Part shown: piece after piece, positions 33,615-58,878 of the stretch
How positions within the stretch are numbered: the first letter of the stretch is position 1
Layout: every line of letters starts with the position of its first letter
Assembly (NCBI GenBank): GCA_000091205.1
Contig: AP006491.2
DNA: 64,000 nt
From: Cyanidioschyzon merolae
Lineage: Eukaryota
Reading direction: 5' to 3' (one strand)
Position numbers and translations under genes: made by a program
Notes under the pieces: generated by a model
Database searches by the model: none
Told to the model about the DNA's origin: nothing
The model's input: only the letters and a program-made list of their open reading frames with translations

Positions 33615-34652
33615 TCAGGGGCCTGAAAGTATCCAGATTCGAGCATGCGTGGCGGCTCGTGACTCTCGTAGACGACCAAGATGCCGAAAAACATTCATCA
33701 GCGCTCTGCCCGTAGTATCCTGCTTCAGTGATGCAAAGGACTTGATATCTGTCTCGGAGAAAAAGTAGTGCCCGCGAGTCTCGTCCGTTTCCATGTCCTC
33801 ATAGCGGCAGCGCTGATCAAGCTGCGCAGAAGTGAGCTCATGCTTTGGACGACGCAAAAGCGCATACTTATAACGCAAGATGCTCTCAATATCGCTGATC
33901 GCTCTATGCAGACGCTCTATGGTGACGCGTCCGCGTATGTGCCCCGGAACTTGCTGGAGCGTCTCCTCAGTCACTGGCTCGACGCGTGGAGCGGCGTCAA
34001 CCGCCGGCGCTGCTCGGGGAAACGAGTCTCGCTTCCGTGGAACAGGCGAGACACTGTCGTTTACCCTGCCAGTGGGTGCTCCTTCTGATCCAGGTGGCTG
34101 CTGCGCGCTCGGTGGTGAAGCGTCCTCCGTACCAGCGCAAGTGCGCCCGGCGCGTCGCCGCTGCTGGAGCGCCACCTGCAAACGACGCCACTGCTGCCGC
34201 TGCTCTCGTACTCGGCGACAAAGCTGCTTCATTTGTCCGGCATATCGCAAGTCCTCCTCTAGCGCCTCTTTCAGCCAGTAGAAGTGCGTCTCCGCTGCTT
34301 GGAGCTGCGCCTCGGTGGCGTACAAGTGCTCATCCAACGCTGGCACTGCCTCAGCTGAGCGCATCAGCGCCAACCACTTGAGAGTACGCACCCGCCGGAC
34401 AAGAGTCGCAGCATCGGCACCCAGTTGACTCCCAATACCGAGTAGTCGTTGCTCATCGGGATGACCCTCAACCGGGACCTCTGAGCGTTCCCCGCGAGTC
34501 GACAGCATATGCAAAAGGTCCGACACGCGCCAGGGATTTTGAATGTCGCGGCCGCAATGGACGGTGCTTTGTTCCAATGCCGCACACGTCGATGAAACAG
34601 TCGATGCTCCACGAGCACGCAGGGTATATGAATACCGACGTGCAGACGCCAA
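33615..34652 (-). CDS. SKA1: Spindle and kinetochore-associated protein 1 (SKA1) homologue
   Basis: The C-terminal microtubule-binding domain aligns with human SKA1: TIERLHRAISDIESILRYKYALLRRPKHELTSAQLDQRCRYEDMETDETRGHYFFSETDIKSFASLKQDTTGRALMNVFRHLGRLRESRAATHARIWIL vs LNETVDKINTALTEKYKLLHQPKKSMNSVTRNLYHRFIDEETKDTKGRYFIVEADIKEFTTLKADKKFHVLLNILRHCRRLSEVRGGGLTRYVI. The N-terminal 50 to 90 aa may be over-called. Confidence 0.7.
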   Translation of the reverse strand: MASARRYSYTLRARGASTVSSTCAALEQSTVHCGRDIQNPWRVSDLLHMLSTRGERSEVPVEGHPDEQRLLGIGSQLGADAATLVRRVRTLKWLALMRSAEAVPALDEHLYATEAQLQAAETHFYWLKEALEEDLRYAGQMKQLCRRVREQRQQWRRLQVALQQRRRAGRTCAGTEDASPPSAQQPPGSEGAPTGRVNDSVSPVPRKRDSFPRAAPAVDAAPRVEPVTEETLQQVPGHIRGRVTIERLHRAISDIESILRYKYALLRRPKHELTSAQLDQRCRYEDMETDETRGHYFFSETDIKSFASLKQDTTGRALMNVFRHLGRLRESRAATHARIWILSGP

Positions 34653-34657
34653 CCAGT

Positions 34658-34950
34658 CTATGTCGACCGGCCAGCTACTAGTAGCTCCAACTTCTCCTTA
34701 TACGCCTCGAGTATCAGAGGCTGCCCCATAAAGTTGGTTCGCGCCAGCTCCTCGGGTCTCTTCTCCAGCACTGCACATCCCCTGACATTGAAGGCGGCGT
34801 CGAAGTCCCGGTACACAAATACGATACGTTTCTTCCCGTTGTTTGCACTTACGAATGCAAGTAGGCCTCGATTTTGGGCGCTCCATTCCATTTGCTCCTA
34901 CGTCAGCGCTGCGAACTTTTCTACATGCGCAGGGCTCCGCTTGCACTTCT
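34658..34950 (-). mobile_element. Fragment of the TnpB/Fanzor-like element retaining an RuvC-III-like RDxxAAxN motif, abutting the SKA1 start
   Basis: ORF 34658..34891 reads VSANNGKKRIVFVYRDFDAAFNVRGCAVLEKRPEELART. This is paralogous to 13006..13941 (INGKKRTEFVNRQFHAVITIMRCAVLETRPEELTRT). A second frame, 34698..34946 (MCSAGEETRGAGANQLYGAAS), matches 13686..13907 (MCGAGDETRGVDANHLCGAAP). An in-frame stop lies immediately upstream, so it is a fragment. Confidence 0.45.
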
Positions 34951-35380
34951 CCGTCTCGACTTTCTGAGGTGTACGCCCCAGCTCATTCCTGATTTTCTTG
35001 AAACTGAATGTATTTGTTCAAGACTTTGGGTGAAGACCTCCCGAGAAAGAGAGAAGGGCTTGCGGAAGAGAGGCGAAATTTGCCCTGGTGTCTCATTGTG
35101 TGCTGAACGAATCAGCGGTTCGCCCAGTGGAGCGATCAGTACGTTTCACGATAGAGAACATTTCCTCGCAGAGGATGCGCCACGATGAGCATGTAGGAAT
35201 GAAAAGCATCTCTACCTCAATAGAATCGGTAAAGGCTCGAACGCAAGTGGAATGGTCAAATGCCAAGTTGTCCAATAGAAGGAACTTCGCCGGACGTCAG
35301 TGACAGGTCTTCAACGATTCGACAAAGCGGGTGGTGCTGTTGTACGGGCCTTCACTACGACCGAAACTAAGGCCGCAAAA

Positions 35381-36160
35381 TCACTCCGCTGCCTCTAGAA
35401 CAGATGATGTCGTTGGTCTCTTGGAGTTTGATTCTACATACATCTTGGTCCCTGCTCCGGGATTACTCATATCCGCTTTGACCGTTTCACCCGAGGCAAG
35501 TCTCATCGACCGAGAAAACAAACCGACGTCGCTGTGCTGTATACGGATCGCCGAGTTCCGGGAACTTTCTTGTAGTTGCGATTTCGATGGAAGATGGCCA
35601 TATGTGAACAAGGACTCTTTTTCCGACTGTATCCCAGTGGTTTCAGGACCACTCGAACCAGCTGCTAAGAAACAGAAACGCCCATGGTGGCTCCTATCAT
35701 CGTTTTGCGCTTTCCCTAAAGTGATCAACGGGTCGTTCTGTACCACTGACTGCAAGCGATCTCGAAGAATATCTGACTTTGGCGCGGGGCGCGTGATCTC
35801 CGTCCTCTCAGTGTCCCTTAGCCATCTGAGAACTGTGGTATGACTGACCTGAATGAGGAATGCAGTCCCTGTTGCACTGGTCAGTAACGCGTACGTATCC
35901 CACAGGCAATTCTTCCACGATCTATGCGGCACATTGCATCGAGATTTCGGTTTCTTTGTACTCACCGCAGCGGGGGTGAAATAATACTGAGTTGAAGGAC
36001 TTTTACGCTTCAAATACCATCTTGGATGGAAATATTCAAGCGTCATGCTGGAGGCTTCCACATCCGCATGGAGTTCGGGCCACGTGCCGTGAGACGCTCC
36101 CGTCTTTGCGGGGCCAGCACGCAAACGATTGCATAGAGCCTGTAGATGAAACCTCGGCAA
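35381..36160 (-). pseudogene. Relic ORF with a Tc1/mariner-like paired HTH fragment
   Basis: Residues about 105 to 155 (nt about 35695..35848) read VSHTTVLRWLRDTERTEITRPAPKSDILRDRLQSVVQNDPLITLGKAQ. Compare the Tc1/mariner N-terminal HTH pattern vSrstV.R...rf.etG....rprsGRPrk...r.dr.i.r.v..nP..t. No DDE domain follows, so it is decayed. Confidence 0.3.
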
Positions 36161-37394
36161 ACGCGTGCAAAACGCTAATAAACCATGACAGTCGCCGCGG
36201 GTGGAAGTGCCTCAGCGTTCCAGCGACCCGCGAGGTGCCGAGTTCCTCGGAAGCGCTCGCCACGGCACCGGACACGTAGCGCCAGACGACGCGCGGCGTC
36301 AGCACCTCTAGGCGTTGCGTTTAGGGCCCTCGGCTCCATGCTGCACGATGCCCGTGCCGCACAGTGCGCTTCCTCGCCTGCTGCTGACGCCAGCGCTGGT
36401 GAAACAATGCCAGACATACCCACTCCGTGCCGTTACGTATTCGGTGCCCGCGGTGTTCACTGGTCAATGCATTCGATCTTCACAACAAAGCGGCTGCTGC
36501 GAATGCCAAAGGAACAGATCCAGCTTTGCACGCGACCCGTTCCGCTTGGTTGCCAATACGAGGAAACCGCTCAGGTCCGTGGCGCTGCACACTGCTAACG
36601 ATGCCTGGATGGTATGGAATGCGGGACGGCAATGCAGCCGCTTCGATAGAGTTTACATGCCCGATGCAGCTCGTACCTCAATTGATTCAGGCGCGGGGAA
36701 CCCAGGCTAGATGAATCCCTAATTGACTTCGGAATGCATCTCATTGTTCTCCAGGGGAGTTCCACGGTGTTCGTAGGAGAACGTATCGCCTCGCTGGCCG
36801 CACAGGAGCAATCCGCGGCGACTCCCCGTGCAGCTGATCCATGCTCGCCATCCAGCCTGCAATGATGGCATAAAGTGTTAGGTACCACGTTGTTTTTGGT
36901 GCGGTCTCGGTGCGAGATCGCGTTTACTCCTCTGAAACCCGGCTGTCTAGCCAACTGCGAACATTCGGCATGATCGTTCACAGGTGCTACCAAAATTCCG
37001 GCATGCGCGACGCATGTACTGTATAGGCAGCTGGCTTTCGGAAATCATCTTGCGTTTTGGAGCAGTAAGCATCGCACTCGGCCTCGGATAGAGACTGGGA
37101 ACGCTGGCATCGATACCGAATGAACAAATGGCAGCGTGCAGTCGAACACGACTGCTTCATACAAAACAGTCGATCGAACCGCACACAGAGCACACACAGA
37201 CGAGTCAAGAACGTATCGACTAGACCAGGGCGCCGGTTCCCATACACGCTGCAAGCACAGCATCGCACCCGCGGCAGACAGCTATTACAGGGTATCTCGC
37301 GCCAATGACCAGGCCACAGACCGGTGTGCAGCGCGGAATTCAGCAAGCCTGGCGGCCTTCTCATGCGTGTGGACAAAGTCGGCGGGGTTTGGAT

Positions 37395-38177
37395 TCACGC
37401 TTGGCGCCCAGCAAGCTGATCCGTGCTCTCCATCTGGACCCAAGCCTTGAAGCGTCGCCGCATCTGTGCCACAAACGCTCCGAAATCATTCGTTCGGTTC
37501 AGCGTTTCCACCATTTGTGCGAGACGTACATTCGCTGCTCCGGCCGTTGGCTTCATTACATCAATGTCAGGAACGCAGTCCTCGACTCGGAATAAATCTG
37601 CGTCCTCATCTACATACACTGTAAAAGCAAACTCGCGATCCGGCGCCCGCGAATCGATGTGTCGGAAAATCACGCGAACCTTGCCGTCAACACGCCCGGC
37701 CTCGGTCGCCGAGGCAGCGCCAACTCTCTGAAACCGCAGCCCCAGTCTATCTCGGTACCAAACAAGCGCCTTCTGGAGATGCAGCAGACGCGTGCGCCGT
37801 GCCTCTTCGCACGCATTCAAGAGCGCTCGACGGCGCTCAAACTCCTGCCGGCGCTCAGCGATCTCCTGCTCGAGTTCCTGCTGCCTCACCGGTAGCGCAG
37901 CGGCCCGTGCCTCGAGTTGCGCTATTCCACGCTCGAGGGCGTCCAGCTCCTCACGCTCTGCCTCTAAACGCTCCTGCAATCGTGCCGCTGCTGCCTCGAA
38001 TTGCGTGCGCCGCTGTACCAATGTCTCCGTTTCCCGTGACACCCGCGCCGTTGTCTCCTGCCAGGTCCGCTGTACCTCTTCCAGATTGCTCAAACGTCCT
38101 CTTGCCCAAACCTCAAACTGTGTCCTAGCGTGATGAAGGTTTTCATCGAGATGTCTCAAGTCTACAGTATCCATCAA
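37395..38177 (-). CDS. SPC25: Kinetochore protein SPC25 (NDC80 complex subunit) homologue
   Basis: An N-terminal coiled coil (EAEREELDALERGIAQLEARAAALPVRQQELEQEIAERRQEFERRR) is followed by a C-terminal RWD-like domain RLGLRFQRVGAASATEAGRVDGKVRVIFRHIDSRAPDREFAFTVYV...VRLAQMVETLNRTNDFGAFVAQMRRRFKAW. Human SPC25 reads [30 protein letters not shown]...ENVRKTNNFSAFLANVRKAF. Confidence 0.6.
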   Translation of the reverse strand: MMDTVDLRHLDENLHHARTQFEVWARGRLSNLEEVQRTWQETTARVSRETETLVQRRTQFEAAAARLQERLEAEREELDALERGIAQLEARAAALPVRQQELEQEIAERRQEFERRRALLNACEEARRTRLLHLQKALVWYRDRLGLRFQRVGAASATEAGRVDGKVRVIFRHIDSRAPDREFAFTVYVDEDADLFRVEDCVPDIDVMKPTAGAANVRLAQMVETLNRTNDFGAFVAQMRRRFKAWVQMESTDQLAGRQA

Positions 38178-38286
38178 CGGACTAAAAGCGTCGATGGCAG
38201 AAGGAGTCGCTCAGACCTGCGGCGCAGTGCTGCTTTGCGCGCCTTTCTGGTGGCGCTGATTTCAAATCGCCACGATGTGCAACGCT

Positions 38287-38322
<36 letters not shown>

Positions 38323-38344
38323 GTTTCGCGCTTCTCAACGCCCT
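38178..38344. promoter_or_regulatory. Short divergent intergenic region shared by SPC25 (-) and the MAD1-like gene (+), containing an (ACGC)n microsatellite at 38288..38323
   Basis: The two start codons are 167 bp apart and point away from each other. gcacgcacgcacgcacgcacgcacgcacgcacgcg lies in the middle. Promoter function is inferred from the arrangement only. Confidence 0.3.
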
Positions 38345-40036
38345 ATGCCTGGGTGTCAACCTGACGAGGATGCGCAACACATAGTGGCGAAACCTTCCAG
38401 TCCCCGCTTGCTGATGCCTTCTAGACCCCTGAGTGACATCCAGGAAAGCTGGGAGGATCGAGAGAACGCCCCACCGGCTGCAACGTGGACGCCTTTGGCG
38501 AAACATCTGCCGGCAGACGGCACGGCTGCTCCCAGTGACGGTGAGGTGGCCTCCAACACGCTTGTTCGGAAAACCGCGCGCAAGGGTTCGGAATATTCCG
38601 GTGTATCAGGTTGCATCTTCACGACGGCAGGAAGCACCACTAGCGCCGGAGTTTCCGAGTGCGGCGAGTCCACGGAGCGCACGGCTCTCGCTGAAGCGCG
38701 CCCAGTAGCTAGCCTGTCGACGAACGCTGGCGCCGTTCCGGGAACCCCAGCATCGCCTGTTGCCGCGGAGGCGTCGAAACACTCTGAAGTTAACGTTCGA
38801 CCAGACAAAGGAGACGCAGCGGCTTTCGACCAGCTGCTTCAAACAGAAGCACGAACAGCATCGCCGGCCGGCGCGGCGCAGGCGCAGGCGCGGCAACCTA
38901 CACCGCCAGCGAGGCATACAGCGGAAACGAGCGCTACTTCTCAGCTCGCATGGCGAGAGAACGATACGTCGAGAACGAGCCTAATCCGGCCCGACTGGGC
39001 TGCTCCTGATGAGTCGACACTTGACGGACAGCAGTCAGCACGCGATAGTCTACGCGGTGCGCGCACACCAGCGACACGTCGGCTCTCCGGTGGTGTGCGG
39101 ACCACCAAGAGTCGCATGCAGCATCGTCGCTCCAGTACTGCAGCGAATACGCAACTACCAGTACCGAGAATGGTTACCAACGAAGACAAGAGCGAGGCAG
39201 GGGTGCCAGCATCCAGGCAAGGCTCTGGCGCAGAGCCTCGCGCATTGCAGCAGGACACGTCGCCAGCGCAATTGCCTTCATCCGAACGAGCTGCTGGGAC
39301 ACAGGGCGCCCAGCGTTTACCAGCCACTACATTTCCGTGGAATGCAAATGGCACAATACAAGCAGCAGAGGCCACGCGTGCCTTCGAGGAATACCGTGCT
39401 AGCGTCGCAGTCCAGTTAGATGCCGCCGAACGGCTGGTCGAACGTTACAAGAGCGAAAACGAACAGCTGCGACAGCAGCTTGACCATGCAGAAGTGGCGA
39501 AACTGCGCCAACGGGTCGACGATCTCGAGCGCACCCGAACAGACCAACAGCTGCGATATCTCGAACTGCAGAAGCATGCGATTCAGCTAGAAGCTGACCT
39601 CGCGCGAGAACGTCTCGCACTCGAGCGCGAGCGATCACAACTCGCCCAGCTCGAAAACGACGCCGCACCAGCAGCAGCGCTTTTCCAACTATGTTCTGGG
39701 GCGACCCAGGTGAAACCCATACGCGTTCGCTACGAGTCCACGGGTACAACGCCAGAGACCGAAGCCAAACTCCCCGGGAACACACCGTCCACAGCGAATC
39801 GTCCACAGGCCATTTGGCTTAACGGCTACCAAATACTCCTAGAAAATAGCGCCTTGCAACGAAGAGCTCTCTTTCAACTCGTTCTCGATGACTCGGGCGA
39901 TGTCGAATACACGCCCCTGGAACTGATGCTCGGCGACGCCGCCACCGATGCACCAGACTTTCTCCAGGAGACCATCTACTTTCCGCGAAACGAGTTGCCC
40001 CTGTTCTGGCTGCGACTCGTTGGCGTTCTCTTTTAA
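38345..40036 (+). CDS. MAD1: Mitotic spindle-assembly-checkpoint protein MAD1-like (short form: disordered N-terminus, short coiled coil, Mad1 C-terminal domain)
   Basis: The coiled coil ERLVERYKSENEQLRQQLDHAEVAKLRQRVDDLERTRTDQQLRYLELQKHAIQLEADLARERLALERER is followed by a C-terminus IWLNGYQILLENSALQRRALFQLVL...FLQETIYFPRNELPLFWLRLVGVLF. Compare human MAD1 C-terminus [25 protein letters not shown]...ELIEVHLRRQDSIPAFLSSLTLELF. Confidence 0.5.
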   Translation: MPGCQPDEDAQHIVAKPSSPRLLMPSRPLSDIQESWEDRENAPPAATWTPLAKHLPADGTAAPSDGEVASNTLVRKTARKGSEYSGVSGCIFTTAGSTTSAGVSECGESTERTALAEARPVASLSTNAGAVPGTPASPVAAEASKHSEVNVRPDKGDAAAFDQLLQTEARTASPAGAAQAQARQPTPPARHTAETSATSQLAWRENDTSRTSLIRPDWAAPDESTLDGQQSARDSLRGARTPATRRLSGGVRTTKSRMQHRRSSTAANTQLPVPRMVTNEDKSEAGVPASRQGSGAEPRALQQDTSPAQLPSSERAAGTQGAQRLPATTFPWNANGTIQAAEATRAFEEYRASVAVQLDAAERLVERYKSENEQLRQQLDHAEVAKLRQRVDDLERTRTDQQLRYLELQKHAIQLEADLARERLALERERSQLAQLENDAAPAAALFQLCSGATQVKPIRVRYESTGTTPETEAKLPGNTPSTANRPQAIWLNGYQILLENSALQRRALFQLVLDDSGDVEYTPLELMLGDAATDAPDFLQETIYFPRNELPLFWLRLVGVLF

Positions 40037-40142
40037 ACCACGGTTACTCCACTCGTGCCGCTTGACACGTAACGACGACACCTTCTGGACACGACCCCAG
40101 AGACGCAGCTTCCGTCAATGCTCCAACCCGGCAACCTCGACG

Positions 40143-43100
40143 ATGTCGACGTTCAAACAAACCTGCGATGCGTTCTGCTCGGGCGCGACGCGTCCTCAGA
40201 CAAGCGCACAGGGACCACGTCTTGTTCTGGATCAACCTGGTAGCGTCGCGGCTTTCGGTCAGTGTTTGGACGCCATCAGCGTCGCTGGCTTGGCACTGGT
40301 CGTTACGGTGCAACAGGACGGAAGCGTTGCGCTCTGGGTTACTAGTGGACTGCGCTTTTATCGTCAGTTTTTTTGGAGTGCGCGACGTGAACGCATCATC
40401 GATGCGGATTGTCATTCCGTAACGTCTGCTGACGATTTTGATGCTGTGCTCAGTGCACGCTTTCGGAGACCGGACGGGGCGCTGGTTCTAGGGACGCACG
40501 CTGGACACGTGGTTTGTATTGAACACGGGTCGGGGGGCGGGTTGGCGAACCTGTATCGCCGCTGGCAGCTTGTAGGTCGCCTCGACGCTCCGGTGTGGCT
40601 CGTGGGCAGTGTCGCACCAACGCCGACGACACCCGTCGACACAACTGCTGCCAACAATGGCGACGGGGATCAGGGCAGCACGGGTGCCGCTTTGTCGACG
40701 GGAGCACCCGGCGAATCGCATACCCGCCCGTTACCCGCGTCTGTGTCGGTATCTGAAGCGAGGGCGTGCTCGCCTTTGGCAGCGATCAGCACGGGTGTGG
40801 TCGTGGCGTGGACGGAGCACGCGCTCTGGTGGTATGTGCCAGCGCTCCGCCGATGGCATCGTTGCCCACATCCAGAGGATTTCGAAGCGCAGCAGCAGCA
40901 GCAGCGCATACGCGATGCTCCTGCGATCTATCTGGGGGAGGTTAGTGCCTCAGGGTGCTTTTTTGCGTGGACGTTGCGGCATAGTGACGGGTGCTGGATC
41001 GGCGCATGTCCACAGTGGCATGCAGCTACGTTCCACGCTGCATCGGATACCGATACCAACGACAGTGCTGATGACAATGTTGATCAGCGTATGCACAGTG
41101 AAGCTGTCTTCATTCATACCTCAGATCCGCTGTGCAGTCTTGCTTGGAAACCGGCACCGATTCGCGGTGGCGAGGCGCTGCTCGTGGGCGATAGATGCGG
41201 CCGCCTGAGGCTCTTCTCTGCAGCGACAACGGACTGGCGCTCGATAGCCACGGTGAGCGGCATGCCGCTCGCGACGCAGGCGGTCGATACAGCTGCCTGT
41301 TTCGTGCACCAGTACGGCAGCGGAGGCATCGCTGAAGACGAGAATGACGCTGCTCTGGTGGTTCTATCCGAGTGGCATCTCGGGGGCGCTGCAGCCTCCG
41401 GCGATACACGTCCACATGCAAAGCGAGACGCTCAGTCCGCACAGGGCATCATCGTGCATCCATATCGAGCGTCGATTGCGGTGCACTATATTGGGCAATG
41501 GATTCCGGGGATGCCCACGCTCTGGTGCGTCTCGCACCTGAACGATGAACCGGTACCCCGGGTGGTACCGTTCCATCGGGCCTCAGATGGGGCGTCAACG
41601 CCCGTGGCGCCTCCCGAGACGGACGCCAACGTTGCAAGGAACGGCCCGCCGACGCCTGTTCTCGAGTCAGTTGAGGGCGCCGCTGCATCAACAGCAGCAT
41701 GCCTTGCGGTACGTATCGAGGCAGCAGCAGAGTCGTGGCGAGCGCCGGTCAGCGCCGCGTGTGCTCCGGCAAAGGAGCTGCGGAGCCAGCAGCCGCCGGC
41801 GCAACCTGCACAACTGAACTGGATCCTGCAGAGAGGTCAGGTTGTGGAACGTTGGTACCAAAACGGTCGCCCAGGCGATGCCCTGGAGTTCTGGTCGCAC
41901 GTTGTCAGACTGGGCAACGGCGATGTGGGGTCCATCGGCGCGCTCTCCTACGGCTCTCGAGCGCGCACGCTGGTAGCACTTACGAGCACGCAACGACTTG
42001 TGTGCTGGCCGCTACCAGGCTGGCCGGCGCTGCGCTCCGGATACGGTCCCCGAACGCTGCCGACCCTGACCCAGACTAGAGTTTCGCGACCAGGGTGGGT
42101 TCACTGCGCCAACCAGCTTACCGCTTGTGTGCGTTGCGCTCAACGCGTTGAGTTGGCCTTGTTCACGATGACGGAGGCAGGTCTGCTCCAGCTGTACGGC
42201 TGGCTGTCGCCGCCCGAAGTAGACGCTCGTGAAACGCAAGCTCGGATACCGGACGAGGCCACCGCTGCGCCGCTGATGTGTGTGCTATCCGCGTCGACAC
42301 CGCCGGGGGTCCAGGTCGACGACTGTGCCGTTTGGAGTCGTCATCAGCCGCAGATGCTCGATACGCTCGAGGCGGACCAGCCGCAAGAAACAGGCTTGCT
42401 CTGCTGGAGCGCCCTCGACATGGTCTGGTACGTCTCCAGGATCATTGGTGTTCGGGACGCGAATGCAACTTCCGTGGCTCATTCGGTGCCCGCCAGCATC
42501 GATTCGGAAACCGGTGATGCTGCCATTGCGCCATTGGTGCCTTGCGGAAGCGCAACGCCCGTGCAAGCCGCTCCCGCATGCAACCAGCACCAGCCCGAAG
42601 AGGGGCAGGCGACTGCCCGCGCCAGCTCACCGGCCCGCAACTGCCGACATCTTGCCCTGCATTGCTTCGACTTGTCGCCCTGGGTACGATTATGTGTTTC
42701 GGATCCGCCGCCTTGCGCCTTTGCGGTTCGTACAGACAAGGTATTCGTATGGCGGGTGGACGGAGTCCTCGCTGTGTACCGACTCGACACCTCCAGGTCG
42801 GTACTGGAACGGATTACGGCATCGCGCCTGGTGGCGGAAACGCTTCATGAACGCGCACACTGGCACCAAAGTCGCCTGGTGGTTTCCGCTGACGCCCAAG
42901 AGGTCGCCGTCTGGGATGCAGCGTCACGTCGACTGCACCTGTGTTCATTCGACGGTGCGGATATCTACGCATTAACTACTGTGGATGTGTCGGATACGCG
43001 GCCTGATGCGGATATCTCGTTCGCACGCTACCGTAGTTGCGCTTATCTCACGGTGGACCGGTGGCTCTATTATCGCCGGGGTTGCCGCTGGATCTCGTGC

Positions 43101-45638
43101 GGTCAGTTGCCTGGCGTCGTTCACCACACGATTTCGCTGCCGGAAGGTGTCGTCGTCGCTTCGAGGAACGACCAGCTCTTTGTGTTCGATGCGAGCATGG
43201 CAATGTCAAGAGCGGATCAGGAAACCGAGGCCCTCAGCGCTGACGCGCGTTACGAGATGGCGTTGATGGCGGGCATCGGGGCTGGACTCACACCGGATGC
43301 AGCTATGCGAATCGCGCAAAGCATCGACTCGGCGGCACTGGCACCTGGCGAGGACACCGGCACTGCCGCTGATGCGACAGCGCATCCCGAGAGCGTCGCT
43401 CTCGAGCAGCTGGGTACAGCGCGTAGCGCTTCGCCGGACCCGCACGCCCACTGCGCCGTCGATCGCGAGCACGACGGAATGCCGCCAACTGTAGCACCGC
43501 TGATGCGGAGCGTAGATACAGGCGCGGATGCCGGCGCTTTCGCTCGTGCTTGCCACGAGAGCTTTGCTGCTCACGCCAGAGCCTGCGCTGCTCTGGACGC
43601 TAACGGCTCCGTTTTCGTCATCCTCGCGGATGCATATCGGCGTCTTAATCTGGAAATTCCGCCGCAGGTCCTGCAGTTCGCGTTACACGCAACTTGCGAA
43701 GAAGCGATATTGCAGGAGCTTGGACTTTTGAGCGGGTCCGTTAAATGGCACATGGCGCGCCAATACGGCTGTGGCTATTGGGTGCGCTCGGAACTGCTCA
43801 TCCACCGTCTCGTCGAGGTCATTGCTCGCGCAACCTACAACGCATCACACAAGCCGCGGGATGCAGTGCTATGGTACGTGCTGCTGCGACGACCGCGCGT
43901 GCTGAGCACGCTCTTCCGTGCAATCGGCGAGCCGCGAATCGCGGGCTTCTTCGCGCAAGACTTTGGGGATGCCGCCGTTCGAGAGCGGGCCAATAAGAAC
44001 GCATTTGCAAGACTCGCCGTCCATGACTACGAGCTGTCAGCGGCGTTCTTCATCCTGGGTGCTGACCCATCCGCAGCCATGCAAGTCATCCGGGATCGCC
44101 TCGGCGACGAGCAACTGGCGCTATTGCTGTCGCGACTTGAACCGACGCTCCAAGCAGAGCAGGCGCTGGGGAATGCCCAGGAGCACCAGCAGGCACCGGA
44201 ATGGCAACTGCTACGCGCTTGCGTCATTGGCAAATACGACCATGCTGTAGCGATCGTAGAGCGTATGGACTGGTTGCGGAACGAATCGCAGGCCAGCGCC
44301 TGGCCCGCCATGGCTGGTGCTCTGCTCCAGACGAGAGCACTGCAGGCAGCACCCTCTGTCCAGCGTAGGCCGGATTTCATCGGAGCGCATCAGCGACTCC
44401 GGTTTCGAGTCGGCCATCTTTTGGCACAGACCGACCTTCTGCCCCTGGCTCAGCGACTGGTGCATCCGGCGTGGCGTATCCAGATGCAGAGCCACGCCCT
44501 CGGCCAAGCGCTGCTGCGCAACTCCACCGCGTGCACTCTCGCGCGCCCCGCACTGCGTGCCTGGGTGCAGCAAACGATAGCCGTGTCCGAGGAGCCGCTT
44601 CCCGTGCACGCCCTCGAGAGCGTCCTCGTGGCCACGGGGCAGTGGCTCCTGCACCAGGACGCGCCCCGTCTGCTCGGCTCGCTGAACGCCTGGATCGTCA
44701 TTCGCCAACTGCTGGAGTCGCACCGCTCTCGCGTTCACCGCATCTCGTTAGATGAAGGTTTCCTGGACAGCATACTCTCTTATCTAGTCGCCACTATCCA
44801 CCGAATCGCTTTGGGTGTCAGCGATCCCGACGAAGACATCAGCGAACCTCAACAACAACAACACGTCTGGTTGATGGACGCTGCAGTGCTCACAGAACGT
44901 CTCCAAGCCGCATCACCTCCAGTGGTACCCGAGGCAACGCGAGTTGCCTTGTCACAAGCAGCACAAGTTGCGCGTTTCCTCTGGATATGGCGGCATGCGC
45001 GCTGGACACCTATCAACGCGATGCACGCATCGTGGTGCGACGCGGCGACACGCATGCAGCGGACAGCACATGTTCCCGCCAAAGCGATTGAAACGGACAC
45101 GGCGATCGAGCCCCGACCCCCATCAGTGCCGTGCCTGCCGCGTCGTCGACAGCGCGCGCACTGCCTGTCCATGCTGCATGCGCTGTGCCTCGTCGACGCC
45201 CTGGATCGCTGTGCGGTGTGCCTGCAGACGACGACGACGGCGGCGGCGGCGCTGCGCTGGGCGACGGCGCTGCGTACCGCCATCCACCTCCTGATCGAGC
45301 GCATCGCTGGAGCGCCTGGGCAAGGCGATGCGCTCGCCGGACGCCATCAGCAGCAGTTGCCCGATGGCGATGAGGAGGCAGTGGAGCAGCTGTGGCGACG
45401 CTGCTGGCTTGCTGGTGGCTGGGTGCGTACGCAACTCGCGCGAGCGCTGCTCGCGGATCACGCGGCCGAAGCGGTGCATCCAGCGTCATGTGCAGCGGCG
45501 GCGGATGGCGTCTCCGGCACGACGTATCCGCTTGAGCGGACGCTCTATCCGGTGCGATTTCCGGTGCGGGAGATTCGACGGTACGTCGCTCGCAAATCAA
45601 GACGCGCCACAGCGTCCTGCTGCGCGAAGCGACCCTGA
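40143..45638 (+). CDS. RAV1: Rav1/DMXL (rabconnectin-3 alpha-like, RAVE complex, V-ATPase assembly regulator) large WD40 protein, main body
   Basis: The Rav1p_C-type region reads PRDAVLWYVLLRRPRVLSTLFRAIGEPRIAGFFAQDFGDAAVRERANKNAFARLAVHDYELSAAFFILGADPSAAMQVIRDRLGDEQLALLLSRLEP. Compare DMXL/Rav1 KDPLDCALFYLALKKKQVLWGLFR...KFLSNDF.EDRWRTAALKNAYALLGKQRFEHAAAFFLLAGSLKDAIEVC...DIQLAMVIARLYE. The N-terminal part is WD-like. The ORF opens at 39948, overlapping the MAD1 3' end. The first Met after the MAD1 stop (40143, MSTFKQ) is taken as the start. Confidence 0.7.
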   Translation: MSTFKQTCDAFCSGATRPQTSAQGPRLVLDQPGSVAAFGQCLDAISVAGLALVVTVQQDGSVALWVTSGLRFYRQFFWSARRERIIDADCHSVTSADDFDAVLSARFRRPDGALVLGTHAGHVVCIEHGSGGGLANLYRRWQLVGRLDAPVWLVGSVAPTPTTPVDTTAANNGDGDQGSTGAALSTGAPGESHTRPLPASVSVSEARACSPLAAISTGVVVAWTEHALWWYVPALRRWHRCPHPEDFEAQQQQQRIRDAPAIYLGEVSASGCFFAWTLRHSDGCWIGACPQWHAATFHAASDTDTNDSADDNVDQRMHSEAVFIHTSDPLCSLAWKPAPIRGGEALLVGDRCGRLRLFSAATTDWRSIATVSGMPLATQAVDTAACFVHQYGSGGIAEDENDAALVVLSEWHLGGAAASGDTRPHAKRDAQSAQGIIVHPYRASIAVHYIGQWIPGMPTLWCVSHLNDEPVPRVVPFHRASDGASTPVAPPETDANVARNGPPTPVLESVEGAAASTAACLAVRIEAAAESWRAPVSAACAPAKELRSQQPPAQPAQLNWILQRGQVVERWYQNGRPGDALEFWSHVVRLGNGDVGSIGALSYGSRARTLVALTSTQRLVCWPLPGWPALRSGYGPRTLPTLTQTRVSRPGWVHCANQLTACVRCAQRVELALFTMTEAGLLQLYGWLSPPEVDARETQARIPDEATAAPLMCVLSASTPPGVQVDDCAVWSRHQPQMLDTLEADQPQETGLLCWSALDMVWYVSRIIGVRDANATSVAHSVPASIDSETGDAAIAPLVPCGSATPVQAAPACNQHQPEEGQATARASSPARNCRHLALHCFDLSPWVRLCVSDPPPCAFAVRTDKVFVWRVDGVLAVYRLDTSRSVLERITASRLVAETLHERAHWHQSRLVVSADAQEVAVWDAASRRLHLCSFDGADIYALTTVDVSDTRPDADISFARYRSCAYLTVDRWLYYRRGCRWISCGQLPGVVHHTISLPEGVVVASRNDQLFVFDASMAMSRADQETEALSADARYEMALMAGIGAGLTPDAAMRIAQSIDSAALAPGEDTGTAADATAHPESVALEQLGTARSASPDPHAHCAVDREHDGMPPTVAPLMRSVDTGADAGAFARACHESFAAHARACAALDANGSVFVILADAYRRLNLEIPPQVLQFALHATCEEAILQELGLLSGSVKWHMARQYGCGYWVRSELLIHRLVEVIARATYNASHKPRDAVLWYVLLRRPRVLSTLFRAIGEPRIAGFFAQDFGDAAVRERANKNAFARLAVHDYELSAAFFILGADPSAAMQVIRDRLGDEQLALLLSRLEPTLQAEQALGNAQEHQQAPEWQLLRACVIGKYDHAVAIVERMDWLRNESQASAWPAMAGALLQTRALQAAPSVQRRPDFIGAHQRLRFRVGHLLAQTDLLPLAQRLVHPAWRIQMQSHALGQALLRNSTACTLARPALRAWVQQTIAVSEEPLPVHALESVLVATGQWLLHQDAPRLLGSLNAWIVIRQLLESHRSRVHRISLDEGFLDSILSYLVATIHRIALGVSDPDEDISEPQQQQHVWLMDAAVLTERLQAASPPVVPEATRVALSQAAQVARFLWIWRHARWTPINAMHASWCDAATRMQRTAHVPAKAIETDTAIEPRPPSVPCLPRRRQRAHCLSMLHALCLVDALDRCAVCLQTTTTAAAALRWATALRTAIHLLIERIAGAPGQGDALAGRHQQQLPDGDEEAVEQLWRRCWLAGGWVRTQLARALLADHAAEAVHPASCAAAADGVSGTTYPLERTLYPVRFPVREIRRYVARKSRRATASCCAKRP

Positions 45639-46987
45639 TGACGGCGCTGGCTGTTGCGCCGCATGAGCCGACGCGGCTTGTCGTCGCCACACTGAAGCCG
45701 CATCGAGGTCTGTATGAGCTCAGCTGGGAGCCCGCTGAGGGTGTCTCCACGGACGGCGAATCAGAGCGTCTGCCTCGATCGTCACCGAGCTCGGCATCGG
45801 CCGTCGTGCGTGACCTCCGCGCCGGCAACTGGCACGGGCGTGTACCCGACGCGCGGCATGCGGAGGCTGCGGCAGCGTCGCGCGGGCTCCGCTGGCGCTC
45901 CGAGGTGCTCGCGTCGAGTCTGGCGGCGCATCCCTTCTCAAATCGGTACATTTCCGGAGATACTGAGGGTGACTTGCTTTTTTGGACTTTTGGAGAGCCG
46001 TTCGCTCTAGCCCAGCTCACATGGGCGCACGCACGCGGCCAAGTGGTGCAGCGTGTTCGCTTCGCACCTTTTGGAGATGCCGTGGTTGCTGCCTACGCCT
46101 CAGGTCTGGTGGCGCTCTGGCGCGTGCCCGATAAGCTTGCCATCTGCACGCCAAGTGAGCCGGAACAGGTCTGGCGACCTTTCGGCGATGTCTGCGTACA
46201 TGATGTCTGCTTTGTCGATCAGGAGAATGTGATTGCGACTTTTGGTCGCGCCTATGACGGCAGCAATGCGACTGGCGGCGACATAGGTCCCAGTCGAATG
46301 GACACCATTCGAGTCTTCGATCTGCGGGCGGGGGCACTGAATCCACAGCAACAACAACAACAACAACGTTACCATCATCAGCCTGTGCTGTGTTTCCGGG
46401 CCCACACGCTCCCTGGTGGAGATTCGAGCGTGCGCGGCTCTTCGAGTTGCGAATCCCTCTGCGGACTCGTACTGGGCGATGGGACGCGGCTCCTGAGTGC
46501 GTCCTCCGAAGGCCACCTAGCCGTGTGTGATATGCGAACGTCTCGCTGTGCAGCCCAGTTCAGGGCACACTCGGACGGCAGCGCCATTCGTACGCTGGTC
46601 ATGGAAGAGCCGCGGGGACGGGCGCTGATCACCGGCACCGACAGCGGCCAGGTGCGGCTCTGGGACGCGCGTTCCCTGCGTCTGCTCGAGGAACTTGGTA
46701 CGGTGCATCGGCCAACGCGTCATTTCCGCGCTCGGGCACGTGCAAGTCAACATGCCTCCAGTCTCCGTCTGAGTGGCGGCACTGCACTTTTCGGGCTCTA
46801 TGGCGTGGAGTGTGCGCTGCTCACGGATTATAGTCTGATCACTGGCGGCGGTGATGGGTACCTGTACGCACACGGGCCCGGCTGGGGCGGCACTGCGAGC
46901 CCAGCAGTCAGTGATCACGTCAGCACTTTTGCAGACGATGTGGATACGCAACTGCGACGCGTGGAGAGCGGTCTTGCGCTCTTCTGA
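45638..46987 (+). CDS. RAV1: C-terminal WD40-repeat segment, most likely the 3' part of the same Rav1/DMXL gene (frame changes at an ATGA overlap)
   Basis: WD40 repeats (GDTEGDLLFWTF, ASGLVALWRV, SSEGHLAVCDMR, TDSGQVRLWDAR, GGGDGYLYAH) are present. DMXL-family proteins end in WD40 repeats. The ORF begins at the A of the preceding ORF's TGA stop (cccTGATGacg), a -1 offset. A (CAA)n-encoded QQQQQQQ tract lies at 46346..46367. Confidence 0.6.
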   Translation: MTALAVAPHEPTRLVVATLKPHRGLYELSWEPAEGVSTDGESERLPRSSPSSASAVVRDLRAGNWHGRVPDARHAEAAAASRGLRWRSEVLASSLAAHPFSNRYISGDTEGDLLFWTFGEPFALAQLTWAHARGQVVQRVRFAPFGDAVVAAYASGLVALWRVPDKLAICTPSEPEQVWRPFGDVCVHDVCFVDQENVIATFGRAYDGSNATGGDIGPSRMDTIRVFDLRAGALNPQQQQQQQRYHHQPVLCFRAHTLPGGDSSVRGSSSCESLCGLVLGDGTRLLSASSEGHLAVCDMRTSRCAAQFRAHSDGSAIRTLVMEEPRGRALITGTDSGQVRLWDARSLRLLEELGTVHRPTRHFRARARASQHASSLRLSGGTALFGLYGVECALLTDYSLITGGGDGYLYAHGPGWGGTASPAVSDHVSTFADDVDTQLRRVESGLALF

Positions 46988-49023
46988 GTGTTCGCGCCTC
47001 GCCATGCTTTCGATCAAGTGACGTGTCTGCACTTGAAGAGAAAAAAGGATCCGCAGAGTCTAGAAACAACACCGTTCGGTGTCACGGGGTAGCTCAGTAT
47101 ACGGTACAGGGTTTGCCGTTCCCTCACGAATGTCTTGCTCCCTGATTCGCACAGGCACTGTGTCATCGTTGAAGGAGTTGCCAAGCAGCGAAACCCGCCG
47201 TTGACGTGTCGAAACCTTGCCGTCTCTATCGACGCCGGAGTAATCGCGAGCCACCCGGTACGACACATGGTCAAGTGGGCTACGTTGCTGCGCTCGTCTC
47301 TGACGCATTAGCTGTCTGACGAAGCGCGATGTCTGCTGCGTCATTACACCTTGTTCGTGGCGTTTTGTATTCCGGATCTTTGGCCAAACTGCATGCTTGC
47401 ATATCGCATACCGTACTGTGGTTCTGAACGGCGTCCAGTGCACTAGGGTCACAATTTCACGTTCCTAACGATGCACCTGTATGGGCTCTTTGGGTTCGCA
47501 TTGCAGCTGAGTCTGATCCGATGCCTTCAAATGACACCGAGGCGTGAGCACACGATCCATGCTGGTCGTCCTCTCACTGCGAAGCGCTCCGCGAGGCATT
47601 CTTGCAGCCGGCGACACGCACATGGGGGCGGAAACACGCACAAGCCGCTGCACTAGTGCTCGAATGTTACTTTTGGAGGCGTTCGCACGTACAAGCACTC
47701 CATCCCAGCTGCTGTATAGGCTCGGAGCGATATTCATGAAGCGGGAAATCGTTCGTGCAGAGCAATAGCCGACGTTGAACCTACCTGGTTTCATCCTCTG
47801 AGGGTCAATGGCTCATCTGTCATCCCTTTGCAGGTTCATTGCACCCTCGAAAGCGCCGTGGCTAGCAGCTGAGGCCACTGTCGTCGTTGCTGGCAGACGC
47901 GCGCCGCCTTCAGCGCAGCAGTACTGGCGGTAAACGTTCGATTTCGTCGCCATGATGACTGGAGGTTGCTCGCCTCGCGTGCCGCATTGCACGCTTATCG
48001 TTGCGCAGTGCACCCGTTTCCACTGCGAAGCAGAGATACGACCTCTCCTGGAACTGGGTTACATGCACTTCGTGCTTATCGCATAGACTCCTTCAGCCTC
48101 GGAGCTATCATCACACTGGTGCTGCATCTGGGGCACCTGCACGCAGTCCTGTACCGTGCAGCGCTCATTCGTAACACATCAGCCGGTGTCGACACGCTCT
48201 ATGCACGTGCTGCCCTTGTTACCGGAGGTATTTGCGGACACGTGCCTAGTTGATACCTGGATGCCCGCTTTTTTATGTTGCCGTTTTGGGGTGTACCAGG
48301 GGCCATACGCGCGCACGACGTGCCGCGCAGTCAGCAACACCGCGTCCCATCTCGAATCGGCGAGTCAGAGGCACTCCGCATCCCTTGCATGTGGTGATGA
48401 AATATCGCGAGGAAAACGAGACAGCTGTGAACACGTTTTCCATTGGTGCACATGCCCGAACGCGAGCCCCGGCGAATCTGTGTGCTCCCTGCCGGACTCG
48501 CGGCATTAATGCGTCTCTACAACGCGCTGATGGAGCGTGCTCTGTTCAGCATCGCTGCGAGCATCCCCTGGAGATTTGGTACTCGGGGCTTCACCGGATG
48601 ACGCTTCGAGCTCATGAAACGAACACTGGACTGGGGAGTCGGGGTTCAGAGGCGTTTATGACGGCAGTGAAGAAGGTTCCCCGGATGCCGGCAACATTCG
48701 CGCTGTCGGGGGATGCCCGTTCAACGCATGGATCGTGCGTCAACTACAACATATTCTGTTCAAATGTATTCACTTATGTACATGATCGTTTGATCCTGAT
48801 CACCGTCACCTGTGCTCCCTGCTCTCTGCATGATCACAACACATCCTGTCCTATTATATCCATTTATAGAACGAATTGTTTGTTCCTGTATCACGGGTAC
48901 CAAGCAGATCTGCTCAATGCCGTCTGCACCGGATATCTGCACTTGAACCTCGATGCCTGCCCGTGGTCGCTTCTTGCGATTGCTCTAACTTGTGATATCG
49001 ACACGCTCGGGTTCTTCAGGGCC

Positions 49024-58511: not shown

Positions 58512-58878
58512 CTGCTGATCTCTACTACAGATCTCTACTCATTGCTGATCTCTACTACAGATCTCTACTCATTGCTGATTGCTGATCTCTACTCATTGCT
58601 GATCTCTACTACAGATCTCTACTCGTTGCTGATTGCTGATCTCTACTCGTTGGTGATTGCTGATCTCTACTCGTTGCTGATTGCTGATCTCTACTCGTTG
58701 GTGATTGCTGATCTCTACTCATTGCTGATTGCTGATCTCTACTCATTGCTGATTGCTGATCTCTACTCATTGCTGATTGCTGATCTCTACTCGTTGCTGA
58801 TTGCTGATCTCTACTCGTTGCTGATTGCTGATCTCTACTCATTGCTGATTGCTGATCTCTACTCATTGCTGATTGCTG
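58512..58878. repeat. Minisatellite: about 15 tandem 24-bp units GATCTCTACTC(A/G)TTG(C/G)TGATTGCT, with some 13-bp variants
   Basis: Read directly (ctctactcattgctgattgctgat repeated). It lies inside ORF 58227..59030, where it encodes (DLYSLLIA)n. Confidence 0.9.

Follow-up and report, generated by a model that had tools for sequence, protein, structure and literature searches.

Three consecutive annotated genes on chromosome 9 of Cyanidioschyzon merolae 10D (locus CMI099C-CMI102C) all encode kinetochore proteins: SKA1, SPC25, and a Csm1/Pcs1-like protein previously taken for MAD1. The cluster is real, if only mildly curious, and consists of known genes, one of which was misnamed; it most likely reflects retained ancestry and one bidirectional promoter. 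The neighbourhood looks like an old inherited arrangement, and nothing in it points to a dedicated regulatory unit. The whole stretch of DNA analysed, 64 kb in length, is referred to below as the window.

Genes of the cluster

The ORFs of the three genes reported in the first-pass annotation are all present in the window at the positions assigned to them. Their limits rested on bacterial start codons, and eukaryotic ATGs shorten SKA1 and SPC25. SKA1 (CMI099C, BAM79991.1; 33615..34508, minus strand, 297 aa) has its true ATG at 34508; the longer 345-aa ORF, extending to 34652, opens with TTG. Its product is identical to BAM79991.1 of C. merolae 10D, and the gene ID was taken from PMC12112623. 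Residues 83-333 of the ORF match Pfam PF07160 (125.8 bits, cutoff 29.6) along profile positions 9-241 of 243, and the C-terminal microtubule-binding domain corresponds to the solved human and C. elegans domains (human SKA1 4ca0_A/4c9y_A, E 1.1e-16; 2lyc_A, E 2.6e-6). SPC25 (CMI101C; 37395..38174, minus strand, 259 aa) belongs to the Ndc80 complex and is 100% identical to the 10D protein BAM79992.1. It matches PF08234, the C-terminal RWD domain following the coiled coil, at 59.6 bits (cutoff 22.3), as well as Spc25 chains in PDB (8ppr_G, E 1.8e-12, also 8q5h_5 and 2ve7). Both names are thus borne out. The CDC14-type phosphatase also reported in the window resides at 8861..11341 (minus strand) and features DSPn (PF14671, 78.3 bits) and DSPc (PF00782, 41.5 bits) domains; it lies outside the cluster and is given as context.

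SKA1 and SPC25 are separated by a C. merolae-specific spacer of 2.9 kb (34509..37394), which measures ~0.5–1.0 kb in relatives. ORFs found in the spacer, such as 35381..36160 (minus strand), have no Pfam match and no counterpart in relatives. Protein accessions are consecutive across the spacer and CMI100C is absent from gene tables, and therefore no annotated gene is located there. The SPC25 and Csm1-like genes are divergent and closely spaced, as first described; the distance from ATG to ATG is 170 bp (38175..38344) rather than 167 bp, because the eukaryotic ATG of SPC25 is at 38174.

The third gene is Csm1-like

The product of the third gene (CMI102C, BAM79993.1; 38345..40036, plus strand, 563 aa) had been described as MAD1-like, a claim which fails. 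The Mad1 Pfam PF05557, which covers the long Mad1 coiled coil, finds nothing in CMI102C even at E<=1, and the sole Pfam match is to Csm1_N (PF18504; 30.2 bits, cutoff 26.3, residues 347-403). One orthologue scores above the Csm1_N cutoff (P0019, 28.9 bits), another below it (P0020, 21.4 bits). Residues 1-330 form a low-complexity extension, common only to the close relatives Cyanidiococcus and Cyanidium. A long helix, of only ~110 residues, is predicted at residues ~340-450, and a small beta-rich domain (residues ~494-563) marks the C-terminus. Judged by fold, the latter is predicted to be of the Csm1 type (RWD-like), the closest solved folds being those of Csm1, and the Mad1 C-terminal domain not being the closest in the fold comparison. 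Foldseek E-values are weak (0.015–0.14), with a consistent ranking. CMI102C has no direct match to the C-terminal Csm1 Pfam PF12539; its remote homologue P0022 (profile E 6e-5) scores 20.3 bits against it, below the cutoff of 22.6, and 36.6 bits against DUF5094 (cutoff 33.2). A profile search against PDB retrieved Csm1 at E 0.07.

In the supplement of PMC12112623, the authors' annotation assigns Mad1 to another gene, CMP244C. This annotation, the missing PF05557 match and the non-Mad1 fold all speak against CMI102C being Mad1. Csm1 and Dsn1-N are each scored 1 for all four red algae in Plowman 2019 (Table S1, PMC6823300). CMI102C is a protein of the Csm1/Pcs1 family (yeast monopolin, plant TITAN9) with a lineage-specific N-terminal extension. 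Though wrong at the family level, the MAD1 label points to the right structural class, in which an RWD-like kinetochore domain comes after a coiled coil. The coiled coil noted as unusually short in the supposed MAD1 is explained by the Csm1/Pcs1-like nature of the gene. Of the three genes, one was moved to another family, itself a kinetochore family, and none to non-mitotic ones.

A probable Ask1 gene nearby

CMI108C (BAM79998.1; 56018..57166, plus strand, 382 aa) sits ~16 kb past the Csm1-like gene, at a distance of five annotated genes in the downstream direction. This ORF had been indicated as a further kinetochore candidate. Its UniRef name, 'DASH complex subunit ASK1', agrees with the suggestion; the match to DASH_Ask1 (PF08655; residues 9-64 aligned with positions 2-58 of the 64-position profile) is sub-threshold (17.8 bits, cutoff 20.7; E 0.003), and a PDB sequence search gave no match. 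CMI108C is a probable DASH/Dam1 Ask1 subunit, and as such a fourth night-induced kinetochore gene in the neighbourhood.

Expression in the diel cycle

Expression was monitored in a public diel microarray (PMC6606799 Data Set S1, replicate 1; h0/4/8/12/16/20/24). Signals are 544/350/266/545/3459/3458/1046 for SKA1, 1065/736/558/792/2735/2584/1017 for SPC25, 684/288/247/2517/23280/19836/5285 for the Csm1-like gene, and 105/141/68/139/678/489/170 for the probable Ask1 gene. The signals of all four are highest at h16-20, during the nocturnal S/M phase, with 5- to 94-fold changes in this one replicate; mRNAs for S and M phase build up at night (PMC6606799). The peak is absent, in the same replicate, in the flanking and interspersed genes CMI098C, 103C, 105C, 106C and 107C. 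Amplitudes across the divergent pair are ~20-fold apart (SPC25 4.9x, Csm1-like 94x), and Csm1-like mRNA is already up at h12. The trio is co-expressed, and the co-expression extends to CMI108C. The suggested co-regulation of SPC25 and the third gene finds support in the coincident h16-20 peaks of this replicate, as in the conserved promoter block described below. The Ndc80-complex/checkpoint genes CMG078C, CMB012C, CMG186C, CMK144C and CMP244C reside on other chromosomes, and are reported to be induced with SKA1 and SPC25 (PMC12112623).

Putative promoter elements

The divergent spacer hosts the block TGGCGC…TTYRAATCGCC, also written TGGCGC/TTCAAATCGCC, present as TGGCGCTGATTTCAAATCGCC at 38251..38271 and containing invariant columns in a four-lineage cyanidiophycean alignment. 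It is followed by a (CGCA)8.8 microsatellite (38288..38322, TRF) and by TTTCGCGC (38324..38331), a candidate site fitting the E2F consensus. Putative cis-elements mark also the region upstream of SKA1 (34533..34745, minus strand), where an E2F-like GGCGCGAA is found at 34738..34745, and TTCAAAATCCC followed by TGGCGCG at 34533..34543, ~30 bp before the ATG. Single copies of the strict 11-mer TTYRAATCGCC are found in the window and in one relative locus (L007), each within the SPC25/Csm1-like spacer; a second relative locus (L008) has two copies, one within this spacer and one 39 bp ahead of SKA1. When a pattern was built only from the SPC25/Csm1 and SKA1 promoters of relatives, the window gave one match (0.32 expected in 64 kb), the putative element TTTGAATACCC (55936..55946, plus strand), which precedes the Ask1 ATG by 72-82 bp, in the context GGCGCGC-N13-TTTGAATACCC. 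Allowing one mismatch, the motif is not enriched in the window (13 matches, 12.9 expected).

The distance between the SPC25 and Csm1-like ATGs is ~100–320 bp in relatives, and in C. merolae it is within the 1 kb limit for head-to-head pairs. The two genes probably share one bidirectional promoter, and the elements at the trio and Ask1 promoters may be regarded as E2F-like and CHR-like. We know of no earlier description of red-algal cell-cycle cis-elements.

Conservation and chance

The order HgmA-Rav1-Csm1like<->SPC25-SKA1-EFL1-GDPD was found in Cyanidiococcus, in a contig with an SPC25 that groups with Cyanidium caldarium, and in one further relative. SKA1 directly follows SPC25, and the trio is strictly adjacent, in these relatives. 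The arrangement is common to at least three genera, and thus not specific to one isolate. Adjacency of the trio beyond background collinearity was not found, as HgmA, Rav1, EFL1 and GDPD are equally collinear in the same loci.

In simulations placing 30–60 kinetochore/checkpoint genes among 4,775, three consecutive kinetochore genes have a nominal probability of 0.001–0.009, and four within eight genes of 0.0002–0.003, for a category picked after seeing the data. Widening the category to ~200 cell-cycle genes raises both probabilities to ~0.3. The caveat raised at the outset, that the genes may cluster by mere chance, has not lost its force. Non-mitotic neighbours are equally collinear, further kinetochore genes are dispersed over other chromosomes, and SKA1 and Ask1 each have a separate promoter. 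Pure accident is not a comfortable explanation either, because the nominal probability is low if the narrow category is accepted.

Origin of the arrangement

The data are probably to be read as three kinetochore genes with ancestral adjacency, similar promoter elements and one shared divergent promoter. SKA1 is the microtubule-binding Ska subunit, SPC25 is part of the Ndc80 complex, and the third gene encodes a Csm1/Pcs1-like protein. All would be ordinary separate transcription units, save the head-to-head SPC25/Csm1-like pair with its putative shared promoter. Co-expression would derive from common trans-acting cell-cycle factors working on E2F-like (GGCGCG[AA]) and CHR-like (TTYRAATCGCC) elements, and not from a shared chromatin domain or operon-like unit. 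Adjacency would be ancestral to Cyanidioschyzon, Cyanidiococcus and Cyanidium, and collinearity of these compact genomes at the locus may account for its retention; the shared promoter may also hold the head-to-head pair together.

Selection could instead have kept a kinetochore 'mini-regulon', in which proximity, by means of a chromatin domain or enhancer-like elements, matches doses and timing of outer-kinetochore proteins in a short S/M phase. Low nominal chance probabilities, the presence within 23.5 kb of four tightly co-expressed genes amid flat neighbours, conservation in at least three genera with strict adjacency in relatives, and related promoter elements at each gene are all in line with it. 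Yet the non-periodic Rav1, CMI105C, HgmA and Dis3-like genes lie between the Csm1-like and Ask1 genes, so that the region is not one co-regulated domain, and a 2.9-kb insertion separating SKA1 from SPC25 was tolerated in C. merolae. Moreover, non-mitotic flanks show the same degree of collinearity in all relatives, other Ndc80-complex/checkpoint genes are induced together with SKA1 and SPC25 from elsewhere in the genome, amplitudes differ 20-fold (5x against 94x) across the shared promoter, and the category is post hoc. Such a unit is unlikely. Quite unlikely is also that Csm1<->SPC25->SKA1 and the nearby Ask1 represent an ancient selected outer-kinetochore cluster of Cyanidiophyceae, driven by a composite E2F-like/CHR-like promoter element TGGCGCG…TTYRAATCGCC.

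Two further readings are highly improbable. A short MAD1-like checkpoint protein, making the locus a meeting point of attachment and checkpoint functions, would suit the coiled coil and RWD-like plan of CMI102C, and is already refuted at the family level. SPC25 and the Csm1-like gene might be tandem duplicates, RWD paralogues produced by local duplication and inversion, as their overall architecture and head-to-head position could suggest, kinetochore RWD proteins being ancient paralogues; but the two proteins are related in BLASTP only at E 0.04, along the coiled coil only, and match different Pfam and PDB families. In Arabidopsis and yeasts, moreover, Spc25 and Csm1 are not known to be encoded side by side.

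Significance

No current view is overturned by the locus. As the genes were already annotated or catalogued, the chief practical result is the correction of CMI102C from MAD1 to Csm1/TITAN9-like. The 94-fold night induction indicates that this gene is strongly cell-cycle-regulated and worth localising. A phylogenetically footprinted putative bidirectional promoter of 170 bp serves two S/M kinetochore genes in an alga in which gene targeting is routine, and hence the spacer lends itself well to the testing of cell-cycle cis-elements in red algae. An ancient selected cluster with a composite element, if true, would imply DREAM/MuvB-type control of red-algal mitotic genes, and offer a compact handle on the running of Ska and Dam1 couplers side by side. 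Co-expression of SKA1 and probable Ask1 bears on the debated near-exclusivity of the two complexes.

Comparison with known systems

The Csm1/Pcs1 family includes the S. cerevisiae monopolin Csm1, S. pombe Pcs1, Arabidopsis TITAN9 and Dictyostelium Cenp-68. As in these proteins, a Csm1_N coiled coil precedes a small beta-rich C-terminal domain in CMI102C, and collinearity with yeast Csm1 extends to either end (PDFLQETIYFP against PEYLFETLSFP). For red algae, both Csm1 and its Dsn1-N receptor motif are on record (PMC6823300). CMI102C differs from yeast Csm1 in chain length (563 against 190 aa), and in the ~330 low-complexity residues ahead of the coiled coil. The Csm1/Pcs1 partner Lrs4/Mde4 has no known counterpart outside fungi.

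CDE/CHR or E2F+CHR cell-cycle promoters are bound in animals by DREAM/MuvB. Similarly, the algal elements are found near the starts of S/M-phase genes, and feature a GC-rich TGGCGCG[AA] a few to ~26 bp upstream of a TTYGAA-type core, TTCAAA in the C. merolae copy. In contrast to CHR promoters, the two elements are anywhere between 0 and 26 nt apart, and a TCGCC/ACCC tail is conserved on the core. This is a resemblance to DREAM/MuvB promoters, and no membership is claimed.

The SPC25/Csm1-like pair resembles head-to-head bidirectional pairs, the genes being 170 bp apart on opposite strands, with products acting in the same machine and coincident mRNA peaks, and arrangement and spacer block being kept across genera of Cyanidiophyceae. 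As far as the general description in PMC4089025 goes, features such as co-expression are the usual behaviour of these pairs. The ~20-fold amplitude gap and the earlier rise of Csm1-like mRNA (h12) across the putative shared promoter set the pair apart from a typical co-expressed one.

Ska and Dam1/DASH are analogous microtubule couplers, and the window hosts one subunit of each, a clear SKA1 and a probable Ask1. Dam1 complexes of red algae are reported as partial only. The two complexes are reported as nearly mutually exclusive, coexisting in only 7 of 102 species (van Hooff 2017, PMC5439489); unlike in this reported pattern, the SKA1 and probable Ask1 genes of C. merolae reside 21 kb apart and peak together.

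Identity of the kinetochore genes

ORFs in the window, where the G+C content is ~50-65%, are long and mostly uninterrupted. Three consecutive annotated genes, with consecutive accessions (BAM79991-79993), encode kinetochore proteins. The translations of the SKA1, Csm1-like and Ask1-like genes match exactly the 10D proteins BAM79991.1, BAM79993.1 (CYME_CMI102C) and BAM79998.1 (CYME_CMI108C), carried alike by the 810,151-bp record, and SPC25 is 100% identical to BAM79992.1. SKA1 and SPC25 correspond to CMI099C and CMI101C in the transcriptome paper (PMC12112623), so that the window belongs to chromosome 9. Environmental contigs 99.1-99.3% identical to the window occur in JGI and ENA metagenomes.

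The identities proposed in the first-pass annotation for SKA1 and SPC25 are secure. SKA1 scores 125.8 bits with PF07160 (cutoff 29.6), and is similar in its C-terminal domain to the human microtubule-binding domain of known structure (E 1e-16); SPC25 scores 59.6 bits with PF08234 (cutoff 22.3), and matches Spc25 chains in the PDB (E 2e-12). The limits of both ORFs, drawn from non-ATG starts, differ from the annotated ones, which set the start of SKA1 at 34508 (33615..34508, minus strand, 297 aa) and that of SPC25 at 38174 (minus strand, 259 aa). The 167 bp thought to separate SPC25 from the third gene become a spacer of 170 bp (38175..38344), measured from ATG to ATG. CDC14, also reported in the window, is confirmed by its Pfam domains; it lies 22 kb off from the trio, and is no kinetochore component.

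The third gene, CMI102C, had been read as MAD1-like. This reading is rejected, as the protein has no match to Pfam Mad1 even at E<=1, structural ranking points elsewhere, and Mad1 is listed as another gene, CMP244C (PMC12112623 supplement). The sole Pfam match is Csm1_N (PF18504; residues 347-403, 30.2 bits, cutoff 26.3), and the UniRef name is already 'Csm1 N-terminal domain-containing protein'. Among PDB sequences, yeast Csm1 is the only family-specific match, weak (E 0.9) and collinear at both ends, the second aligned stretch being PDFLQETIYFPRNELPLFWLRL against PEYLFETLSFPLSSLNQFYNKI. When a profile combining residues 330-563 with two close relatives was run by HMMER against 1.84 billion representative proteins, it retrieved cyanidiophycean orthologues, two distant proteins (P0021, P0022) and nothing else. 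P0022 matches DUF5094 above cutoff; its score for PF12539, the C-terminal family of Csm1, is slightly under cutoff. Residues 330-563, modelled with AlphaFold2 on a six-sequence alignment (mean pLDDT 76.9), are predicted to form a ~110-residue helix and, past a disordered linker, a small beta-rich domain with a terminal helix. When the model was compared by Foldseek with 350,542 chains, ranks 1-14 were all taken by Csm1 chains of S. cerevisiae and C. glabrata.

Csm1 and the Dsn1-N receptor motif were scored as present in 4/4 red algae sampled by Plowman et al. 2019 (PMC6823300). In Supplementary Table S1 of that paper species names and four-letter codes of the Rhodophyta rows are out of register (as in 'Chondrus crispus CMER' and 'Cyanidioschyzon merolae PPUR'), which makes the per-species Mis12 and Zwint-1 values ambiguous. 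Since Csm1 and Dsn1-N are 1 in 4/4 rows, the conclusion is unaffected by the shift.

The short coiled coil, noted before as an oddity, is simply what Csm1-type proteins have. What sets CMI102C apart is a low-complexity N-terminal extension of ~330 residues, common only to the Cyanidiococcus and Cyanidium orthologues. Amid this divergent extension the genera share a short motif at residues ~21-36 (within 38345..38644, plus strand); it reads SRxL…(R/H)PL(S/G)DIQE in the window, in the relative on the JGI contig and in Cyanidiococcus, ALREIQ in the Cyanidium-type sequence, and is not a canonical RxxL D-box. SPC25 and the Csm1-like protein share similarity in the coiled coil alone (BLASTP E 0.04), and their origin as tandem or recent duplicates is rejected.

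Whether ORF 56018..57166 (plus strand; CMI108C), five genes beyond the Csm1-like gene, and other ORFs nearby also encode kinetochore components had been raised as a question. CMI108C is probably Ask1: its N-terminal 56 residues match DASH_Ask1 at E 0.003, with 17.8 bits, under the 20.7 cutoff, and it is called DASH complex subunit ASK1 in UniRef. A metagenome scan with this single protein, in which one pattern was the low-complexity EDDVDDDD, found no Ask1 orthologues. For the other unknown ORFs of the window (13006..13941, 23221..23874, 48250..49050, 58227..59030 and 59442..61109) Pfam gave no match at E<=1.

Gene order in related algae

Loci around SPC25 homologues were compared. In Cyanidiococcus yangmingshanensis, where SPC25 is 69% identical, the order is HgmA, Rav1, Csm1-like, SPC25 (divergent from the Csm1-like gene), SKA1, EFL1-like GTPase, GDPD. 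The same order is found in a contig whose SPC25 (53% identical) clusters with Cyanidium caldarium, and in a third relative, represented by a JGI contig of 166 kb. In all loci a short spacer (~100-320 bp) parts the head-to-head genes. SKA1 lies ~0.5-1.0 kb beyond SPC25 in 3/3 relatives, and 2.9 kb beyond it in C. merolae. The arrangement is thus common to relatives and old, rather than specific to one isolate. Apart from cyanidiophycean proteins, a SKA1 profile search retrieved a single marine SKA1 (Tara), whose neighbours on a contig of 3.4 kb are uninformative; a metagenome scan with the SKA1 alignment retrieved C. merolae-type contigs only.

The SKA1-SPC25 interval (34509..37394) is a C. merolae-specific 2.9-kb insertion, to which nothing in the relatives' loci corresponds at either the protein or the nucleotide level. 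No gene is annotated in it; the locus numbering passes over CMI100C, which two genome-wide expression tables also lack. Searches were negative for tRNAs, for Rfam families (E<=0.1) and for repeats of note, and an RNA gene or repeat element was accordingly rejected. The largest ORF in the interval is 35381..36160 (minus strand).

Rav1 (40143..46987, plus strand) is split in the window by a 1-bp difference in a T-run at ~45557..45561, which reads TTT in the window and TTTT in three independent environmental contigs. The frame of CMI103C is broken into ORFs 39948..45638 and 45638..46987; metagenome contigs encode Rav1 as a single ~2,285-aa protein. The difference is either a sequencing error in the reference or a frameshift of the laboratory strain.

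Expression through the light-dark cycle

Expression was read from microarray data on a culture synchronised by 12-h light/12-h dark (Miyagishima et al. 2019, PMC6606799, Data Set S1; replicate 1, column headers verified). Co-expression is real: the three genes are all highest at 16-20 h, at night, when according to that paper dividing cells predominate and S- and M-phase mRNAs accumulate. Values at 0, 4, 8, 12, 16, 20 and 24 h are 544, 350, 266, 545, 3459, 3458 and 1046 for SKA1; 1065, 736, 558, 792, 2735, 2584 and 1017 for SPC25; 684, 288, 247, 2517, 23280, 19836 and 5285 for the Csm1-like gene; 105, 141, 68, 139, 678, 489 and 170 for the Ask1-like gene. No night peak was seen in replicate 1 for EF2-like CMI098C, Rav1 CMI103C, CMI105C, HgmA CMI106C and Dis3-like CMI107C, nor in the microarray for CMI109C and CMI110C; non-periodic genes lie between the Csm1-like gene and Ask1. 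In rapamycin controls (PMC11376382, Table S1, sheet 1) the genes are unresponsive.

The Csm1-like mRNA changes 94-fold in a day (247 at 8 h, 23,280 at 16 h); it is up already at 12 h, and its rise is earlier and far stronger than that of its divergent partner SPC25 (4.9-fold). Only 107 bp (40036..40143) separate its stop codon from the Rav1 ATG. This interval, a sharp expression boundary, must accommodate the 3' end of the strongly periodic Csm1-like gene as well as the promoter of the flat, weakly expressed Rav1.

Ska and Dam1 complexes are reported to be nearly mutually exclusive, both occurring in 7/102 species (PMC5439489), and red algae are reported to have only partial Dam1 complexes. 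The probable Ask1 gene lies 21 kb from SKA1, and both peak at the same night time points; C. merolae would hence express parts of both couplers jointly.

Origin of the clustering

As three consecutive genes, the cluster is a slightly stronger observation than the one originally made, which had allowed for chance. Chance was measured by assigning K genes to random positions in a genome of 4,775 genes and 20 chromosomes. The probabilities of three consecutive genes and of four within eight are 0.0011 and 0.00024 for K=30, 0.0027 and 0.00075 for K=40, 0.0090 and 0.0034 for K=60, 0.29 and 0.32 for K=200. Adjacency of kinetochore genes is nominally unusual, but the category was chosen post hoc, among many of like size that might have been noticed. 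As 454 genes of C. merolae are cell-cycle-dependent (PMC7401142), adjacent co-expressed cell-cycle genes are to be expected.

We consider it probable that these are independent genes, that SPC25 and the Csm1-like gene form a pair with a shared promoter, and that the remaining adjacency is ancestral order kept in compact, collinear genomes. Promoters in the locus would answer to the same cell-cycle factors; the divergent pair would use one bidirectional promoter, and such sharing may also resist separation by rearrangement. From the shared spacer induction is 5-fold one way (SPC25) and 94-fold the other (Csm1-like). A kinetochore cluster maintained by selection would also account for an old, nominally unusual arrangement; it seems unlikely to us. 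Since the non-mitotic genes on either side are collinear to the same degree, conservation gives no proof of selection on the cluster. Co-expression is usual for kinetochore genes wherever located: other Ndc80-complex genes, Bub1/Mad3 and Mps1 reside on other chromosomes, and nickel stress is reported to induce them along with SKA1 and SPC25 (PMC12112623).

The genes were known already from UniRef names, the 2025 transcriptome paper and phylogenomic tables. We found no paper with CMI102C in its main text, and none describing kinetochore genes as neighbours. The present analysis adds a corrected identity for CMI102C, together with a testable promoter lead.

Candidate elements of the putative shared promoter

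The 170-bp spacer contains TGGCGCTGATTTCAAATCGCC (38251..38271), a putative cis-element, a (CGCA)8.8 microsatellite (38288..38322), and, 14 bp ahead of the Csm1-like ATG, TTTCGCGC (38324..38331), a candidate E2F site which fits the consensus TTTSSCGC. Alignment of orthologous spacers from four lineages revealed one clearly conserved block, which reads TGGCGCGAAAGCAAATTCGAATCGCC in the relative on the JGI contig, TGGCGCGAATGCGAAATTCGAATCGCC in Cyanidiococcus and TGGCGCGAATTTTGAATTTCC in the Cyanidium-type contig. The block is followed in all four lineages by a purine-pyrimidine repeat tract, made by (TGCG)n in Cyanidiococcus and (GC)n in the Cyanidium-type contig; the alternation is kept in kind, not in sequence. 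Microsatellite copy number varies, the spacer measuring 174 bp in a wild contig (L001) vs 170 bp in the window.

The 64-kb window and the 21-kb locus of the JGI relative each contain a single copy of the strict 11-mer TTYRAATCGCC, located in the spacer; the Cyanidiococcus locus has two, of which one is in the spacer and the other 39 bp upstream of SKA1. Upstream of SKA1 the JGI relative features TGGCGCGC-N26-TTTGAATACCC, the window GGCGCGAA (34738..34745) and, immediately before the ATG, TTCAAAATCCC-TGGCGCG. The pattern TTYGAATHBCC, built only from the relatives' sites, has 1 match in the whole window vs 0.32 expected; the match, TTTGAATACCC, is located 72-82 bp upstream of the Ask1 ATG, 13 nt after GGCGCGC. 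Enrichment of the CHR-like motif across the window was dropped as an argument, since with one mismatch allowed 13 matches were found vs 12.9 expected. The evidence is hence positional and phylogenetic, not statistical, and positions and conservation are only suggestive of a functional motif.

The locus is a further case of co-functional neighbouring and head-to-head genes. In its layout the spacer recalls the E2F/CDE-CHR promoters of animal G2/M genes, a resemblance which we regard as an analogy, with no claim that the spacer belongs among them.
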